13,260 nt of DNA, from assembly GCA_043228905.1 (NCBI GenBank), contig JBHGNT010000976.1, positions 1-13,260 on the forward strand, written 5' to 3'. The notes under the pieces were generated by a model that was given only the letters and a program-made list of their open reading frames with translations, searched no databases and was not told the DNA's origin. Both the position numbers and the translations under genes were made by a program. Origin of the DNA: Azolla caroliniana (taxonomy: Eukaryota; Plantae; Polypodiophyta). Position 1 is the first letter of the stretch. Each line of letters starts with the position of its first letter. Of the stretch, positions 1-13,260 are shown in pieces.

Positions 1-519
1 AAATAACCCATAATGTGTGTAAGTATAAATACACTTAGGCAAAAACATAGTGTGATGCATTGTAGAATAGAAAGAATAGAATAGCGTAGAGTTCCTATAG
101 ATGTGTGTTACAGAGTGAAGAGTGAGTGCGTGATAGTGAGAGTAGCGCCATAGTTGTGTGAGCTTAGTAACTGTGTGTTACAGAGTGAAGAGTGAGTGCG
201 TGATAGTGAGAGTAGCGCCATAGTTGTGTGAGCTTAGTAACTGTGTGTTACAGAGTGAAGAGTGAGAGTGGCGCCATAGCTGTGTGAGCTTGGACGCCAA
301 GAACCCTACATGGTGGATACACTCTGTGCAGAGAGAGTGTTGTATACTATCTCCTTTGTATTGTCCATTGTATAGTGGATCTTTGTTCCCGTGGTTTGCC
401 CCGTTTAGGGTTTCCACATTAAATTGTGTATTCAGTGCATTTGTTGTTTTTCTATTTCCGCATTATTGTGCATTTCATAATCGGATTTCCTCACAAATCT
501 CCATGATCGAAGACCAACA
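1..519 (+). repeat. 5' LTR of copia element (partial)
   Basis: Ends in CA 3 nt before the PBS. 377-519 aligns ungapped to 3598-3740 (21 mismatches in 143 nt by manual count). TATAAATA at 24-31. Confidence 0.9.
102..291 (+). repeat. 70-bp tandem repeat inside the LTR
   Basis: 102-171 and 172-241 are identical. The third copy (242-291) lacks 14 bp between AGTGAG direct repeats. Confidence 0.95.
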
Positions 520-522
520 AAC

Positions 523-534
523 TGGTATCAGAGC
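523..534 (+). promoter_or_regulatory. Primer binding site, tRNA-iMet
   Basis: TGGTATCAGAGC directly after the LTR end; canonical plant copia PBS. Confidence 0.95.
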
Positions 535-547
535 TTGAGGTGCAAGC

Positions 548-3500
548 ATGGAAGCATGCGTGAGTGGCTTCCTAGGCATGATAGTTCTACACTTTCAGAA
601 CTTTGCAGACTGGAAGATAAAGATGGAAGGCCTTCTCTTAGTCAAAGACCTATACGAGCCCATCGATAGAGCATAAATACCCACGGGACTATTACAGTCT
701 GAATGGAAAGTTCTGAACAGAAAGGCGGTGGCCACCATTAGATAGTGTGTTGATGTGAGTGTCCTTCAGCATGTGCCAAACGACACAAATGCGTACGAGA
801 TGTGCCAGAACTTGTCAGGTCTATATGAGTGGAAGAATGCCATCAATGAAACATTTTTGATGAGAAAGATTGTGAGGTTGAAGTATAGGGACGGGGAAAG
901 CATAGTCGAGCATGTAAGCACATTCATGGGGTATGTAATCCAGATTGTGGCAACTAAACTTTTCCTTAAGGATGCAATTCAGGCCATCCTGCCACTGTGT
1001 AGACTACCGGACAAGTGGGAGAACCTGGTGGTGACTCTCAACACTACGTTTGAAGAAGAGAACTTGTCTCTACAAATGGTACAGACAAGCATCTTTAGCG
1101 AGGAGACAAGAAGGAAGGACAAGGGTGTCCTATCCCAGTCGGAGTCAAATCTGACTCAACATACATGTAGGGGAAGAAATCGGCAAAGAAGTCCACAAAG
1201 AACGGAGAAGTCCTAAGCCAAATCCAAGTCTAGAGTCAAGCTAGCATGCTTCTATTGTGGAAAGCCTAGACACTTCGAGAGGGACTGACAACACATGATG
1301 AAGGACAAAGGTGTCCATAATAATGTCGAACCCAGGAAGATTCCTGATGAAAAGTGCACATTGGTCGTAGATACAAGTGTTAAGGAGATTTTGTTCATTT
1401 GTGAATAGGCAAGCACAAATCTTGCAAGTGAAGAGTGTACTTGGGTAATCGATTGGGGCGGATCTTTCCACATAACTCCATCGAGAGAGTGTTTCTTAAC
1501 TTGCATAGCCGGGGATCATGGCTATGTAAAGATGGGAGATAATGAGGAGTGCAAGATAGCGGACATAGGAAGTGTAAGCCTGATGACGTCGACAGATTAT
1601 CGATTTAATATGAGGGAAGTTCGAGATGTCCTCGATATCATATTGATTTGATATCGACTGGAAGGCTAGATGATGAAGGCTACAATGGTAGCTTTTGAAA
1701 TGGCAAGTGGAAGTTCTATCGAGGAAACCTCATAGTGGCCCGAGCACAGAAACAGGGCACATTGTATATGATGCATGTCCGACTGTGCAAGTCAAAAATG
1801 AACGTGGCAGCCAACTCGAGTGGAGAGTTAGGGCATAAGAGGCTAGACCATATGAGTTAGAAAGGAATGCATCTACTAGCTGAACAGGAACTTCTCCCAG
1901 AAGTGAAAGGCGTACACTTGGAGAAGTGTGTCGGGTGCTTAGTCGGAAAGCAGAACAGAACAACATTCCACTCAAGACCACCGAAAAGAAGAGAAATGCT
2001 CTTGAAACTAGTGCACACCGATGTGTGCTATGTGGAGGCTCCATCACATCGAGGCGGACAGTACTTCGTCACGTTCATCGATGACTACTATCAAAAATTG
2101 TGGGCTTTAGTACTAATATCGAAGGATCAAGTATTGTCGTTCTTCAAGGAGTTCCAAGCAACGACAGAAAGAGAGTCAAGTCAGAAGTTGAAGGTGGTCC
2201 CAACCGACAACGGTGGCGAATATAGAGGGCATTTCAAAGAATACTGCGAGGCCCAAGGTATTCGAATCGAATACATAGTGCAAAAGACCCCAGCATTGAA
2301 CGGGCTTGTAGAGAGGATGAATCAGACGATAATGGAAAGAGTAAGGAGCATGATGTTGCATGCTATACTGGCGAAAATGTATTGGAATGAGACGATGTAT
2401 ACAACTATTTATTTGATCAATAGGTCTCCCTCAATACCATTGAAAGGTGATGTCCCACATTAGCCCAAAGTCTTTGCGGAGAAAGAGAAAGAGAACCTAC
2501 TATGTCAACTAAAGAAAATCTTGTATGGTTCGAAACAAGCTCCATGCCAATGGTATAAGAAGTTCGAGTCCTTCATGTTGGAATATAGGTTCCAGAAAAC
2601 ACAAGTTGATCAGTATGTGTACGTAAAGAGGTATGATGAGGGTTACTTCTTAATTCTCTTATTATATGTGGATGACATCTTGATAGTCAGACAAGACACG
2701 AAGAGGATCGTGAGCTTAAAGAAAGCTCTAGGCAAGTCGTTTGCAATAAAAGAACTTGGACCCGCTAAACAGATTTTAGAGATGCACATAGTTTGGGACA
2801 GAACTAAGAAAGTGTTGTGGTTGTCACAAGAGAAGTATGTGACAAAGATCCTAGAAAGATTCAACATGTCGGAAGCAAAGCTAGTCGGCTCTATGTCACC
2901 GACCAACTAAGCTAAATGTTAAGCAATGCCTAAGGGGTGACAAAGAAAAGGTTGAGATGAGGAAAGTACGATATGCCTTTAAAGCCATCGGCAGTTTAAT
3001 GTATGTTATGGTTTGTACGAGACCATACATAGCATTTGCTATGGGGACAGTAAGCCGATATAGGAGTAATCTAGGAAGAGAACATTGGGCAACTATTAAA
3101 TAGATACTCAGGTACTTGAAAGCCACCTTTGGGGTATGCCTAAGGTATGGTTGAAGGGTTTACCGACTCGGAAACATTGGGGGACACAAACTCAATTTCA
3201 TCTACTTCAGGGTACATGATGACTTATGCATGGGGAGTAATGTCGTGGCAATCACAACTTCAAAAATATGTGGCCTTGTTGACCATAGAGGCAGAGTATA
3301 TGGCAGCGGTAGAGGCTGGCAAAGAGCTGATCTGGATGAGAAATTTTCTCAGTGAGTTAGGAATGAAGCAAAGGGAATCCTTGCTTCACTGTGATAGCCA
3401 CAACCCCATACATCTAGCCAAGAACGCTATGTACCACTCCTGAACCAAGCACATATAGAGAAGGTATCACTGGTTATGGGAGAGAGTGAAAGATGGAGAG

Positions 3501-3600
3501 TTTACTCTTGCAAAGATCCATACTGACCAAAATGGATACGACATGCTCACAAAGAACCTATCGATGGACAAACTCAAAGTATGTCGACAAAGGACAAGGA
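548..3600 (+). pseudogene. Copia gag-pol polyprotein, disrupted
   Basis: ATG 548 (…NFADWKIKMEGLLLVKDLY…). Zinc knuckle CFYCGKPRHFERD* (1247-1288). Protease WVIDWGGSFH (D at 1451). Integrase HKRLDH…CVGC, VHTDVC, TDNGGEY, NGLVERMN. RT LYGSKQAPCQWY, LLYVDD. RNase H FTDS…EAEY…LHCDS…DMLTK. Many in-frame stops (e.g. 674, 743, 1214, 2461, 3441) and frameshifts (~1645, ~2908, ~3148). Confidence 0.95.
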
Positions 3601-3740
3601 TCTCTATTTCCGTGGTTTTCCCTGTTTAGGGTTTCCACGTAAAACTGTGTACTCTGTGCATTGCCTATTTTTTTGTTCCCGCATTATTGTGCATTTCATA
3701 ATCGGATTTCCTCACGAATCTCAGTAATCGAAGACCAACA
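3598..3740 (+). repeat. 3' LTR remnant (last 143 bp only)
   Basis: Direct repeat of 377-519 ending GAAGACCAACA; fused directly to the end of RNase H coding sequence with no PPT. Confidence 0.9.
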
Positions 3741-4231
3741 CGTTTGTAGTTGAAGATTTGGGCAAGAATACTATTCTATTGTCATGTACTCAAGCAAAAG
3801 CTTTGTTGAACGGTAGATGCTCCTAATGGGACAAGGATCTTCAAAGATGAGATGAGGCAAGGCGTAGTATGTTAGTTAGGTACTCAATTATATAATGCGC
3901 ACTAGTGAGGGCATAGTCTATAGTCCTTCAACACCCAGGTGACTCTCCATCGAAGGTAACTAACTTGTAATTTTAGCTGCTTGATATATTTATTTTCCTA
4001 ATATATTTATTGTTATGATGAACTCTACACATGGTTCACGTCTCTAGATTTTTCTCTTCTTCAACGACACATTGTCTTCCGGCATTCCTCATGATATCTA
4101 TCCCTTTCATGTATTTCAGTTTATGCTTGTAACTAATCTCCCAACCAACTATGGCTAGCAATCAATCGTAAGATTGGTGTCTAAATAGCTCCTAGAAAAC
4201 AATCTAGAGCAATTGGGTAGCAGTTACTATG

Positions 4232-4435
4232 AAACCCTAAACCCTATTAGGTGAGGGTTACTTGAGAAACCTAGACATCTATCTTCGGGTTTGGGTTAAC
4301 TTCCTTTGGATATAGAGCGCGATATTACACATGTACTCCCAGCCCGTACCTCCTTTAATTCCATGTTCCTAAACCCTAAACCGTAAACCCAAGACATCTG
4401 TCTTTGGGTTTGTCTTGACTTCTTTTTGCTATAAA
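4232..4435. repeat. Short interstitial telomere-like (CCCTAAA) tracts with a degenerate 44-bp direct repeat
   Basis: AAACCCTAAACCCTA (4232-4246); CCTAAACCCTAAACCGTAAACCC (4368-4390); 4273-4316 vs 4392-4435 match at 35/44. Confidence 0.6.
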
Positions 4436-4698
4436 CACTACCTCGACAAACCCTCCACCTAAGAGAGTATTGCATCCCTTGTCAATGTCATAGTACCTGT
4501 TATTGAAAGTTGTTCCACACATTGTCAATTGCCATCAATGCCATATTATGACTCCAATTTAACATATTTATTATCAATATATACAATTAAATATTCGCAT
4601 TCATATGTGGTGTGCGTTTATATTACACACTAATATGAGGTGTTGAAAAATGTGGTTTGATACAAACAATATGATATGAGGTGATCATGAGTTCTTAC

Positions 4699-4982
4699 CA
4701 AAACGATTTTGAGAAGGCCTTTCTCCAATCTCCATTATGTTCATGAGCTTGGCCACACCATTCCACGAAGAAGATCAAAGACATTGTGACAATAAATAAT
4801 GCTCCAATGGTTATCCAAAGTTGCCAAGAGAAAGGGGAAATGAATGTCCAGAATGAAATATTACTCCTAGGTTGAAGTGGCGCAATCATTTGAAGACTCG
4901 ATTCTATATATGGCTGGGTAAAGTCTACTAACTTTAACCGGTCACTAGTGATCGTCAAATCAGCAACTACTCCATCTACGTC
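4699..4982 (-). CDS. GLR: Glutamate receptor-like channel (GLR), coding exon 2: end of S1, pre-M1, M1
   Basis: Acceptor catag| then DVDGVVADLTITSDRLKLVDFTQPYIESSLQMIAP…FISPFSWQLWITIGALFIVTMSLIFFVEW…SFW split TG|gtaag (phase 2). These match plant GLR motifs (D.TI..R..VDFT.PY; PF…LW) and the usual GLR intron positions. No stops. Confidence 0.93.
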
Positions 4983-6028
4983 CTATGACCATGCATGCAT
5001 ACAGTGAAAACCAATACAAACGTATTCCTGGAGCACATAATTAATTAAAACCTTATTAATCCAACTTGTTGTATGCTACGTAAATATCATTATCAAGCAG
5101 TGGAAATAATGAGTCGAATTATTCATGAGCTACATACCTTGGAGATTTACTCACACCGTTTACATCAAAGTTGCCAAGGTATGTCATGGTGCTACGATAT
5201 TCATCACACTTATTATAGTGCATACATTTTTGGCTCTTACTCCATACACTTGTACTTGATTGCACATGTATTTCTTTGAGTAAAAATTTCAATCTTTGGT
5301 ATTAAATTTGCTCAAACTATTCCTTGGACCATTCTACACAAGGATTACTAACAAAGTTACTTTATCTCTTCGAAGTGAGCACATCGTACTCTCTTGAGAG
5401 TAGCTTTTCCATACAATACAACAAAACCAATTATTCACCGAATAAGCCTCTCATATTTGACTTATTTGGCGCTAAGAAATATAGATCTTGCACAATTAAT
5501 CAAATAGATCTTACAAGAATAACTAGAAAACATTACCTTGGCCAACCGATGCTTGAATAGTATATCATGGAATGTCAAAATAATTTTAGCGATGCTAAAA
5601 ATTACTTTTAAAACACTCATATGTATTGGAGTTCAAACTCTTGTCCACTGGATCAAACCCTCAATTATAGATGGAATTATCAACAATTTGTTAGTGCCTA
5701 TGTCAATCTTTGAACGAGATTCCATGGTAAGGGGTATGATATTAGGACAATCTTAGTAATTTGTTACATATAGTCTCGAGGTATTTTATGGACTTAGATA
5801 TTAGTTTCTCCCTGTCTAGCCATGACATCCTACTTGAGGATTGCCACAATCCCTTATGTCTTTTCTATCATTAATGTGCACGTAGAAATTCTTGCTAACA
5901 TAGATATAAACACATTATCGAGGTCCATTTATCATAAATGATTAACCTTAAGCGATTGATTTTTACGAAAATTAAGTGTCATTACTACAACAAAAACAAA
6001 AAAAAATTACGTATAGCTAATGTAATAC
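4983..6028 (-). other. GLR intron 1 (GT-AG, phase 0, 1046 nt)
   Basis: AAG|gtatta donor at 6028, catag acceptor at 4983; joins …LVQKLVSK to DVDGVVAD… in frame. AT-rich. Confidence 0.88.
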
Positions 6029-6355
6029 CTTAGAGACAAGCTTTTGCACAAGGTCATTATAGGTTGGGTCTACAAGGCCATCTCCATAGCCAATTAATGT
6101 GTAATTAATACGATAATTAAGCTTCTCAACGCATTCTTGAAACACATTGATGGCGAAGCCGGAGAAATTGACGACGGAGTTGGGCGTGACCGGTATCTCA
6201 GATGATTGCCAACTCACAAACTCCTCGAATCCAAGTTTGAGAGGAACAAGGATCTTCAAGTTGGAGGAATTGGTCGCGTGCGCAGTCGGAAATTCAGGGG
6301 AGAAGAAGATGGCAAGCACTAGGAGAGCCGTGATGAGGCGCATCGGAGCATACAT
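6029..6355 (-). CDS. GLR: GLR coding exon 1: signal peptide plus start of S1 ligand-binding segment
   Basis: ACC-ATG at 6355 (alternative ATG 6343): MYAPMRLITALLVLAIFFSPEFPTAHA-TNSSNLKILVPLKLGFEEFVSW…FSGFAINVFQECVEKLNY…YTLIGYGDGLVDPTYNDLVQKL. This matches GLR S1 (LRIGVP..F.EFV; GYCIDVF; L.Y; P.Y..LV). Confidence 0.88.
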
Positions 6356-6424
6356 GGTCGGGGGATGAGAATGAAGGCCCCAACGGGTGGCCAAGTGTGA
6401 ACTGAGGGGGTGGAAGGGACGAGG

Positions 6425-6454
6425 GAGAGAGAGAGAGAGAGAGGGGTTTATATA
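6425..6454 (-). promoter_or_regulatory. Candidate GLR core promoter: TATA box followed by (CT)9 tract
   Basis: Minus strand TATATAAA (6454-6447), then CCC and (CT)9 (6443-6425), about 90 nt upstream of the ATG. Confidence 0.55.
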
Positions 6455-9972: not shown

Positions 9973-10343
9973 TGTTGCCGGTTAGGAACATGGCCTACCC
10001 TCCTTCGGGGTACGTATCAAGGTGATCGTGGTACAGGGTAGGAAATTGCATAGCGTGTGGAACGTACTGAGTTAGAGCATTGTCGTGAAAATACGACGAG
10101 GATACGTGAACTTGAGGTAGGACCCCAGGGCTTCCGACCAAAGGATATCAGTGCGTTTATACTTTTAACAATTAACGGAAATGAGAAAATATTGTAATTT
10201 TTCATTAGCAAAGGAAAAGAAAATTACAATATTTCTCATTTCCGTTAATTGTTAAAAGTATAAACGCATGAATCTCATATCCTTTGGTCGGAGGACCCGG
10301 GATCCTACCTCAAGTTCACGACACTCGTCGTATTTTCGCAACA
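9973..10343 (+). mobile_element. 5' LTR of a truncated LTR retrotransposon
   Basis: Starts TGTTGC exactly where the methyltransferase frame breaks, ends GCAACA, and is followed after 4 nt by a PBS. Left boundary could alternatively be 10081. No TSD visible. Confidence 0.65.
10081..10343. repeat. Long inverted repeat (foldback), arms 10081-10203 / 10219-10343
   Basis: Perfect 37-bp core 10152-10188 / 10232-10268, plus perfect blocks GAAAATACGACGAG, CGTGAACTTGAGGTAGGA and TCCGACCAAAGGATAT; ~15-nt loop. Confidence 0.95.
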
Positions 10344-10347
10344 TCTT

Positions 10348-10365
10348 TGGTGAACCCGACGTGAA
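10348..10365 (+). promoter_or_regulatory. Primer binding site complementary to tRNA-Trp
   Basis: TGGTGAACCCGACGTGAA is the reverse complement of …TTCACGTCGGGTTCACCA, the 3' end of plant cytosolic tRNA-Trp as I recall it. It lies 4 nt after the LTR-terminal CA. Confidence 0.8.
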
Positions 10366-10930: not shown

Positions 10931-13260
10931 TGCCGGGGAAGACCAGCCCGTAATCACCCTTCATTCTCCAAGTCGTTGTCCGCGTTGGTGTTGTCGTCAC
11001 CATCGTCTAGGCTTGCCAGGTCCAGTTCGTCCTCGTGTCGCTTCTTAAATACTTTGATCCTCTTCCCTGCTACTGGCACATCTATCCGCATCCTCTCAAG
11101 CTCCACGAGATGGTACATGCCATTGTCGTTAGCGCTCGTCACGGCGTAGGGCCCGAACCACCTCTTCGCAAATTTTCGCACTGTTTTGTGCTGATTGTTG
11201 AGGTTGTTGTCATATACCAGCAGCCAATCGCCTTCTTCAATCTCCTTCGGCCGGAGCCGGTGTGTCCGATCGAACCGGGCCTTGTTCCTTCCCCGTGTTG
11301 TGCGCAACTTCTCCCTTGCTCGCTCTACGTCCTCTGGTCTCCGTTCAAGCTGTCGAATCCACGCCGCCAATAGCTCTTCCCGGCTCATTTCGTTCCTCCA
11401 ATCCACCGTGGCCCACGAAGTGATTGCCCGCTCCACCAACATAATCGGTTTATGCCCGTACATCAACTCCGCCGGCATGAACCCAGTCACCAAACTGTGC
11501 GCCAGTCCGCCCACAATGCGTAAGGTAGAAGCCGCGGCCAATTCCCAACCAGTCCTTCACACGCTCGCACCAACGCCTTCACGATTGGGCCTTGCCCTCG
11601 TTCCACCTTCCCGTTCGCCTCTGGGTTGTACGCCGTAGTGAGGGAGAGCTTGACCCCGAACCGGTCGAACAACTCTTCGACTTCCTGCGCGTCCAGCTCC
11701 CCCCAATCTGCCACAATCTTTCCTACGCACCCGTACCAGCACACCACCTCCTTAATCTGGAATCGTCATACCGCCAAAGTCGTCTTATTCTGCAGTGCGC
11801 GGACCTCCACTTGGTTCTTCAAGTCTTCTCGGGCCAGTACCAAGTACCGCATCTGTCCTACCCCCATCGACATCGTCACCAAATCTACCATCCACTTGAA
11901 ATGGACGGTTGGCGGGTAGGTCGGGTGTAGCTCGTCTCGATGCCAGATCATGGAGTGCATCTGGAAACTTTCGCACGTCGTCACGAACCAGTGCATGTCT
12001 CAGTATAGCATTAGCCACCAATACCTCTCCTTTAGCTTCTCGAATGTGACCCAAGTCTTGCGGTGACCGTCCCAAGGACTCTCATGGTACGCCGCGAGCA
12101 GCATCTGCCGCTCCTCCTTTCCTGCCACTACTCGTAGTGGGACGCCGCCTCTCTTCTTTGGATGCTTCCATAGGTTCCCGTCCCATAGGAAGAACCGGTA
12201 CGCTTTCTTCCGGACTCGGTTAGCTTCGCCTTTCGTCCAGGCGGCATCCAACGTCATTGTCTTCAGGAATCTACGAATCCTAAGACACTCCCCTTCATAT
12301 TCACCCTCGTTAAATTCCCTACCCTTGTTAGGCAAGCCGACTCGAAGAAGTCCTCGCCGACTTCTTCGTCCTCCGAAACCATGCCGTCCTCGTCGTCGAA
12401 CGTCGCTCTCGAAAGTATGTCGGCCATGGCGTTGTCCTTTCCGGAGATGTGTCGTACCTCCAGATTCAGGGACTTAATGTACGTGATCCACCTGAGCATT
12501 GCTAGGTCCGGCGTCGCGCATCCGGAAACCATCCCAAGGATCGGTAGGAAGTCCGTCTCGATTATTACCTCCGTCCCGATAAGATAATCTTTATCGGCCT
12601 TGACTGCCGAAACAATACCCCAGCGCTCGCGCTTAGTTTGGGCATATCCTCATTGTCGCTCACTGAGTACCTTCGCTCTGAACCGGATAGGGACCCGTGT
12701 GCCGCCCTCGTCTTCCTGACTGATCACCCATCTTATCCATGTCGGGCTCATATCTACGGTTACATAGATCAGAACATCCTTGCTGTAAACCGCTTTACAA
12801 AGTGTCGGTGCCGCGGTAAGCGCTTCTTTCAATCTTCGGACCGACTCCGTATGTTCCTCGTCCTAGTTGAATTTCCGCCCTTTCTTTTGCAGCCCGTGGA
12901 GTGGTTCCGCGATGTGCGCATAATGTGGAACCCAGATGTGGTAGAACGCACACACCCCCAGCAACCTCCGCACCTCCGTTACTGACTTGCACTCCTTCTT
13001 CATCGCGGAAATGGCTTTGACCTTTGCCGGAGACGGTCTCCGGCCATAAGGCCCACACAAGTGATCGACGACCATGATTTCCGACTGTCCGAAAGCCGAC
13101 TTCTCCCTGGAGAAGGTGAGCTGCGCGCCTTCTAGTCTTTGTAGCAGCTTCTCGTAGTCTCCGATGTGGTCTGAGATGAATTTCCGACACCCGTCTGGTC
13201 TGATCGTTTCGTCCTTATCCTCCACCGGACATCCCTTGATTGGAATGTCATCCAAAAACG
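10931..13260 (-). mobile_element. Degenerate Ty3/gypsy pol (RT-RNaseH-INT), running off the window end
   Basis: RT FLDDIPIKG…RRLLGVCAFY; RNase H VTVD…ETDFLP…KDNAMADILSR; integrase HESPWDGH…CES, WMVD, IVAD, YNPEANGKVER, WFGPY. Gypsy domain order; stops (12863, 12650, 12000, 11766) and frameshifts. Visibly more GC/CpG-rich than its flank. Confidence 0.95.

Follow-up and report, generated by a model that had tools for sequence, protein, structure and literature searches.

The amino-terminal domain (ATD) accounts for about 45% of a plant glutamate receptor-like (GLR) protein, and its role beyond a glutathione site is treated as open in the available text of PMC11479355. The locus analysed here, from the fern Azolla caroliniana, is a GLR gene in which a predicted signal peptide is joined directly to the ligand-binding segment S1, which raises the question of whether the gene genuinely lacks the ATD and, if so, what kind of receptor it may encode. 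The window, that is, the whole stretch of DNA analysed, is the contig JBHGNT010000976.1 of 13,260 nucleotides. There is very little doubt that the gene is real and ATD-less, and, judged from sequence, it represents a real, expressed and conserved variant in several fern genera, which appears GLR-like but has no ATD.

A literature search that largely did not extend to subscription journals found no account of a fern clade of ATD-less GLRs, and the corresponding proteins stand in databases as hypothetical proteins. Within the text available of these sources, the word 'fern' does not occur in the main text of PMC4995503, PMC11479355 mentions ATD absence for GluR0 alone, ATD-less insect IRs and their co-receptors are described in PMC2924276 and PMC5615767, and PMC10975470 has a single Adiantum orthologue in its list, with no use of the word ATD. 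As natural minimal GLRs, the members of the fern clade bear on the need for the ATD in assembly, trafficking and gating, as well as on the pairing of short with full-length subunits, and filters that drop 'truncated' GLRs would lose about half of the GLR family of the Azolla genome.

Layout of the gene and its genomic copies

The gene lies on the (-) strand and comprises five exons, which when spliced form a stop-free frame of 457 codons with the order signal-like peptide, S1, M1, M2, M3, S2, M4 and a short tail (Table 1). Hydrophobic segments span residues 1-19, 164-182, 225-243 and 405-423, the last corresponding to M4, and M1, the M2 loop, M3 and M4 (PF00060) are all found, on a basis that includes the structural model of a Pteridium relative. 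The first-pass annotation had pointed to a TATA box, a CT tract, ACC-ATG and a hydrophobic peptide running into TAHA-TNSSN-LKILVP, all of which were located on the (-) strand, with the ACC-ATG at 6355, a second, in-frame ATG at 6343 and a GT donor at 6028; GFAINVF, which it read in place of GYCIDVF, follows LKILVP, and the loss of the Cys is common to most of the short clade. Its view that both window exons are open and keep the Arg of TITSDR, a motif encoded in exon 2, holds in the spliced 457-codon frame. What goes beyond that reading is the five-exon structure with three exons outside the window, the Copia-type element in intron 2, and a family distributed across several fern genera.

Table 1. 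Coordinates of the GLR gene and neighbouring elements (positions in the window unless prefixed with C2)
Feature	Position	Strand	Remarks
TATA-like box TATATAAA	6447..6454	(-)	99 nt 5' of ATG in C2 twin copy; putative function
CT tract and likely 5' UTR	6356..6446	(-)	CT tract itself 6446-6420
Start codon and predicted signal peptide	6275..6355	(-)	27 codons ending TAHA; predicted cleavage site
Exon 1, coding part	6029..6355	(-)	109 codons; signal peptide joined straight to first half of S1, without ATD
Intron 1	4983..6028	(-)	1046 nt, GT-AG, phase 0; placed as its canonical GLR counterpart; X1 contigs spliced exactly here
Exon 2	4699..4982	(-)	284 nt; remainder of S1 (ligand residues D, T, R), pre-M1, M1, to Trp before M2
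Intron 2, window part	1..4698	(-)	Full length 5613 nt in C2 twin copy
Exon 3	C2:21164989-21164958		32-nt micro-exon, M2; outside window
Exon 4	C2:21164808-21164402		407 nt; M3 and S2; outside window
Exon 5	C2:21164307-21163984		324 nt; end of S2, M4, tail; outside window
Decayed Copia-type LTR retrotransposon	1..3740	(+)	Antisense to GLR gene, within intron 2
MITE-like hairpin	10049-10353		Long imperfect inverted repeat, identified by eye
Decayed, GC-rich Gypsy-type pol region	10950-13260	(-)	About 4.5 kb upstream of GLR gene

The TATA-like box lies at the margin of a TA-rich microsatellite and has no counterpart in the paralogue S07, so that by itself it is weak evidence for a promoter. The signal peptide call is a hydropathy proxy, of which the best 11-residue value is 3.10 in all six near-identical genomic copies. 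Exon 1 shares 34-41% identity with S1 of the canonical GLRs of the same genome, and its homology is drawn from this match because a Pfam scan of exon 1 alone, in which S1a is too short, returned no family; exon 2 matched PF10613 and PF00497 weakly, below their cut-offs. The plant-type intron positions proposed at first pass were borne out, since four positions after S1a, with their phases and including the 32-nt M2 micro-exon, are common to all 13 short and all nine canonical models; the model builder presumed phase 0 for introns 1 and 4, which the joints in transcript contigs confirm for the gene type of the window. The element in intron 2, which we assign to the Copia class from its motifs, carries internal deletions and a truncated 3' LTR; it is found in all six near-identical full copies and therefore predates their duplication.

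Over its full length, the window contig is 99.8% identical to C2:21165905-21179170 of the source assembly (G000), and it is therefore a redundant haplotype or a further tandem copy. Thirteen complete short (ATD-less) GLR genes (S01-S13) reside on C2, and 12 of them are stop-free, the exception being S01 with a premature stop in exon 2; a separate copy consisting of exon 1 only lies at 21.04 Mb. The genes are arranged as six near-identical copies at 21.06-21.24 Mb, a single copy (S07) at 16.59-16.63 Mb, and six diverged copies at 21.34-21.51 Mb on the strand opposite to the near-identical set. The near-identical six (C2:21058698-21239947) alternate in type, S01/S03/S05 against S02/S04/S06, which suggests a two-gene unit in three repeats. 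Near-identical copies (dS 0.007 for S02/S04) may derive partly from assembly redundancy, their number being uncertain, and further exon-1 copies occur on four small contigs (C976, C778, C1039 and C1282). The sampled paralogue subtypes are 56-79% identical to the protein of the window. S07 (C2:16589656-16631477) is stop-free although its intron 2 spans 38.6 kb, and a lone short-type exon 1 fragment amid transposon remains was observed at C10:8718922-8719059 (-). A Pfam domain search, which gives lower bounds, found ATD-bearing (PF01094) GLR loci at no fewer than 14 sites on large contigs outside C2 and at least one on a small contig, with no PF01094 locus on C2.

Search for an amino-terminal domain and spliced transcripts

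A profile built from 29 GLR ATDs was run with filters off over 32,659 reading frames of the DNA fetched. As a control, it recovered all 12 canonical loci included, among which three had not contributed to the profile (E <= 2e-139), together with 10 of the small first exons of the canonical loci (E <= 1.2e-4); over 600 kb of C2 around the short copies, the best E-value was 6.7, with no ATD trace. The open frame 5' of the Met consists of microsatellite and UTR and contains no WPG..PxGW linker, in agreement with the initial statement that neither ATD nor linker lies upstream. PF01094 was found in none of the 12 short clade proteins scanned, and it was found in the full-length control. In all 13 short paralogues, a Met and a strongly hydrophobic peptide stand 28-42 residues before S1 (11-residue hydropathy 2.93-3.45), whereas the 40 residues preceding S1 in the canonical genes have values of -0.10 to 1.23 and carry the WPG linker (9/9 modelled). 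In the near-identical C2 copies, the 70 nt that precede 6355 are free of ATG.

Evidence for transcription comes from contigs of the public run X1, which are 95-99% alike to the exons and skip introns 1 (1046 nt), 3 (149 nt) and 4 (94 nt) exactly at GT-AG, with zero cover inside intron 1; because these joints are exact, the run is judged to be transcript-derived. No joint of intron 2 appears among the X1 matches listed, beyond which lie 51 more loose ends and 62 more pieces. Some X1 loose ends correspond to the subtypes S08/S09 and S12/S13, and a run filed under a different organism label, X2, contains a spliced S12/S13-like form. Spliced contigs are known for three subtypes of short GLR. X2 gave no match to exon 1 and a third run, X3, gave none at all, neither of which counts as evidence. 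The possibility, raised at the outset, that the locus is a gene fragment is thereby ruled out, as downstream exons exist and are open, and spliced forms of copies 95-99% identical are found.

It is hardly credible that ATD exons upstream were overlooked and that the short form is an annotation artefact. Such exons might be joined at a CAG (6404-6402) behind which the frame is open, large introns like that of S07 are known in the family, and the cap site is placed by inference. Nevertheless, no ATD homology was detected in the 600 kb searched, three paralogues (S07, S08 and S09) have no such CAG in the open frame that precedes their Met, S08-S11 carry in-frame stops 2-10 codons ahead of it, the tandem arrangement puts a neighbouring gene 7-45 kb off, and two Logan contigs of 1694 and 2077 nt contain whole ORFs of 480 and 612 residues, which leave no space for an ATD. 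Within the reach of these tools, the splicing of upstream ATD exons at the CAG near 6402, named at first pass as the finding that would overturn its reading, is rejected; short orthologues are on record as whole transcript-derived ORFs. One X1 contig aligns over 6129-6411 and reaches 10 nt past the CAG; its next nine letters fall in a masked repeat, where no loose end is listed. This end would suit transcription beginning some 27 nt behind the TATA box, but it is only a weak hint, since it does not attain the 31 letters required for bridging and a contig cannot reveal where transcription begins.

A separate, split-off ATD gene was also considered and rejected, as the sole other PF01094 locus (C1:5.31 Mb) is distant and many-exon, and its ATD is not of the GLR type. 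This gene, at C1:5312231-5319730 (+), combines a signal-like peptide with a PF01094 Venus-flytrap domain (E 8.8e-9) in a layout that is not that of a GLR, and it is possibly a class-C-GPCR-like or other receptor.

Fern relatives and the origin of the short form

When 1.84 billion representatives were searched with exon 4, a Pteridium transcript ORF of 463 residues with the same layout emerged; a word-index protein search with that exon gave a single, uninformative match among 476 candidates. The Pteridium protein, used in turn as the query, had its best matches below 811 residues (7996 candidates scored) in Adiantum nelumboides, A. capillus-veneris, Pteridium and two Logan contigs, all of them ATD-less. 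The best single-unit full-length proteins found showed just 45-47% identity. Short members from Ceratopteris richardii were found by cluster look-ups, and the short genes of this species include KP509_23G025600 and KP509_15G018800. The search for ATD-less orthologues and paralogues recommended by the first-pass annotation thus yielded relatives in Pteridium, Adiantum and Ceratopteris in addition to the 13 genes on C2. No bryophyte, lycophyte or gymnosperm short form occurs among the 99 matches listed for the Pteridium query, which is limited evidence of absence. A hydrophobic N-terminal peptide (hydropathy 2.44-3.79) is present in 12 of the 13 full-length database proteins of the short clade, and the one protein without a hydrophobic start, P0162, may be mis-started. 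One subclade of the short fern GLRs (P0161-P0164, P0082, P0247 and P0252) is marked by an extended low-complexity stretch inserted into the cytosolic loop that links M1 and M2; in most of these proteins, a conserved peptide containing Cys also separates the signal peptide from S1.

In a quick tree of 71 rows, from which S01, S02, S05 and S06 were excluded as near-duplicates and which included two partial Adiantum models and two Logan rows, all 24 short fern-type rows fall on one side of a branch (SH-aLRT 100). A careful tree of 30 rows, rooted on an ATD-bearing Spirogloea protein, places its 10 short rows in one clade with support of 100/100. This clade is separate and long-branched, outside the seed-plant GLR3 and fern full-length GLRs, and sister to angiosperm rows termed GLR1/2/4-like from our reading of the database labels (85/92, unstarred, with long branches on both sides), a tentative placement that the 71-row tree does not settle; an FGGxGF motif is common to the short fern clade and some GLR1/2/4-like rows. 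The direction of change is likely a loss rather than a gain of the ATD, because the outgroup and all other sampled lineages are ATD-bearing and four intron positions are shared, and the proposal of an origin by ATD loss is thus supported. We infer one ancestral ATD loss in ferns; within the fern clade, the loss is old, conserved and expressed.

ATD-less models in which S1 immediately follows an N-terminal peptide were also observed in seed plants, namely in Impatiens, Liquidambar, Quillaja and Bauhinia (P0110, P0146, P0134, P0230 and P0231; XP_047313028, KAK9265615, KAJ7979516, KAI4353691 and KAI4353714). They share tandem copies with the fern form, five short Bauhinia genes lying on one contig, and PF01094 is found in none of the four models scanned; Quillaja and Bauhinia possibly form a Fabales short clade (SH-aLRT 100). 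A single clade uniting the angiosperm and fern short forms was rejected (AU p 1.7e-55), which indicates that the ATD was lost more than once, and the seed-plant losses are independent. What sets the fern form apart is its occurrence in several genera, its purifying selection and its splicing. Among plant GLRs, 11.03% have been reported to be without an ATD, 74% of these belonging to GLR1&2, a pattern read as possible elimination of redundant genes, and the ATD-less PbrGLR2.11 of pear is not expressed, according to the text available of PMC4995503.

Ligand site, pore and possible working of the short receptor

The amino-acid-coordinating residues of GLR3.2, GLR3.3 and GLR3.4, six in number (PMC11479355), read D-T-R-F-E-Y in the GLR of the window, and the same set occurs in 21 of the 22 short rows that have all six columns, compared with 39 of the 47 other rows. 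At the position of the clade-3 side-chain Arg, as read from our alignment, there is a Lys, which most full-length GLRs of ferns also have. The pore FF is retained, and the M3 gate (consensus SYTAxL) reads SYIASL, one change, in the gene of the window and S01-S06, and SYTASL in S07-S13 and most fern relatives. The S2 motif is xFGGxxF where plant GLRs have KxGWGF. Pairwise dN/dS by the Nei-Gojobori method is 0.34 against S07, 0.28 against S08, 0.24 against S12 and 0.18 against S10, the S10 comparison being near saturation and the S12/S13 values using a shorter exon-4 model with its acceptor 33 nt further downstream. By region, dN/dS is 0.14-0.18 in S1 and 0.11-0.14 in S2, against 0.32-0.54 in M1-M3 and 0.55-0.83 in the M4-tail span, the latter two taking in variable loops. 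S1 and S2 are therefore under purifying selection (0.11-0.18), the outcome of the dN/dS check advised earlier, and constraint is weaker in the membrane region than in the ligand-binding domain.

The structure prediction advised alongside it was made for the Pteridium relative, which is 47% identical to the protein of the window. This AlphaFold model (pLDDT 84, pTM 0.72), in which the first S1 strand comes directly after a low-confidence linker, matches AtGLR3.4 (E 3e-28) and the ligand-binding chains of GLR3.2/3.3 (TM 0.92-0.93). Compared with known plant GLRs (AtGLR3.4, PDB 7LZH/7LZI; GLR3.2/3.3 ligand-binding domains), the fern short form has in common the S1-M1-M2-M3-S2-M4 order, the six ligand residues, the M3 motif, the fold as seen in the Pteridium model, and the four intron positions with the 32-nt micro-exon, but it differs in having no ATD or WPG linker, a signal peptide and S1 in a single exon, only about 40% core identity, a short tail, and the altered S2 motif. 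GluR0 likewise has no ATD, and a broad amino-acid ligand profile has been proposed for GLRs and GluR0 (PMC11479355); however, GluR0 lacks M4 and is K+-selective, whereas the fern short GLR possesses M4, a pore of the plant type and plant introns.

The reading favoured here, at slightly better than even confidence, is that of an amino-acid-binding channel subunit that would assemble and gate without an ATD. The 457-residue protein would enter the secretory pathway, with presumed cleavage of the signal peptide; its S1/S2 clamshell would bind amino acids; tetramers might form through ligand-binding and membrane contacts alone, with no full-length partners; a cation/Ca2+ pore would open; and ATD-based modulation, for example by glutathione, would have been lost. 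In support of the channel reading are the stop-free five-exon model, the exact joints at introns 1, 3 and 4, the clade support of 100/100, the retained ligand, gate and pore motifs, and the precedent of GluR0 as a working channel without an ATD (PMC11479355). Points against it are the looser membrane region, the SYIASL gate, the near-neutral recent pairs, one premature stop, one exon-1-only copy, a 5' end resting on one contig below the bridging standard, and a fold taken from a relative of 47% identity; moreover, the ATD-less pear gene is silent (PMC4995503), and many ATD-less insect IRs need an ATD-bearing co-receptor (PMC5615767).

That last precedent leads to a rather unlikely though plausible alternative, in which the short GLRs would be tuning subunits, active only in heteromers with full-length fern GLRs that supply the ATD for assembly and trafficking. 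A fast-evolving, tandemly expanded short clade does stand beside conserved full-length genes (13 short and at least 14 ATD-bearing), the ligand-binding domain is under more constraint than the membrane region, heteromerisation has been suggested for GLRs (PMC11479355), and insect IRs operate with IR8a/IR25a (PMC5615767, PMC2924276). The ligand residues, on the other hand, are invariant, unlike those of the diversified IRs, and the gate and pore motifs are kept. By analogy, and with doubts of the same order, ferns may have converged on the insect IR design, with the expanded ATD-less clade as variable sensing partners of conserved full-length co-receptors; if so, such partners would make up about half of the GLR genes of the Azolla genome. 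IRs are, like the fern form, eukaryotic iGluR derivatives without an ATD, expanded beside ATD-bearing relatives, but their origin is unrelated and their N-terminus spans about 150-200 residues, against 24-76 in the short GLRs. The IR ligand-binding domain is described as divergent, with some or all agonist-binding residues missing (PMC2924276), which is not the case in the GLR of the window.

Improbable is the view that the short GLRs serve as non-conducting amino-acid sensors or negative modulators that damp GLR tetramers. The relaxed M1-M3 and M4-tail spans beside strict S1/S2, as well as the T-to-I change in the M3 motif of S01-S06, would fit it; yet S07-S13 and the majority of fern relatives retain SYTASL, the full-length K_C19 has SYIA as well, and FF persists in the pore.

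Decay of redundant duplicates, in which ATD loss would serve to remove them as proposed for seed-plant GLR1&2 (PMC4995503), is very improbable and for the whole clade already largely refuted, because frames stay open in paralogues whose dS approaches or exceeds 1, with dN/dS of 0.18-0.34, spliced contigs exist for three subtypes, and the form is kept in Pteridium, Adiantum and Ceratopteris. It may apply to single recent copies, as seen in the copy with a stop, the exon-1-only copy, and the recent pairs with near-neutral dN/dS (0.76 for S03/S04 and 0.86 for S10/S11).
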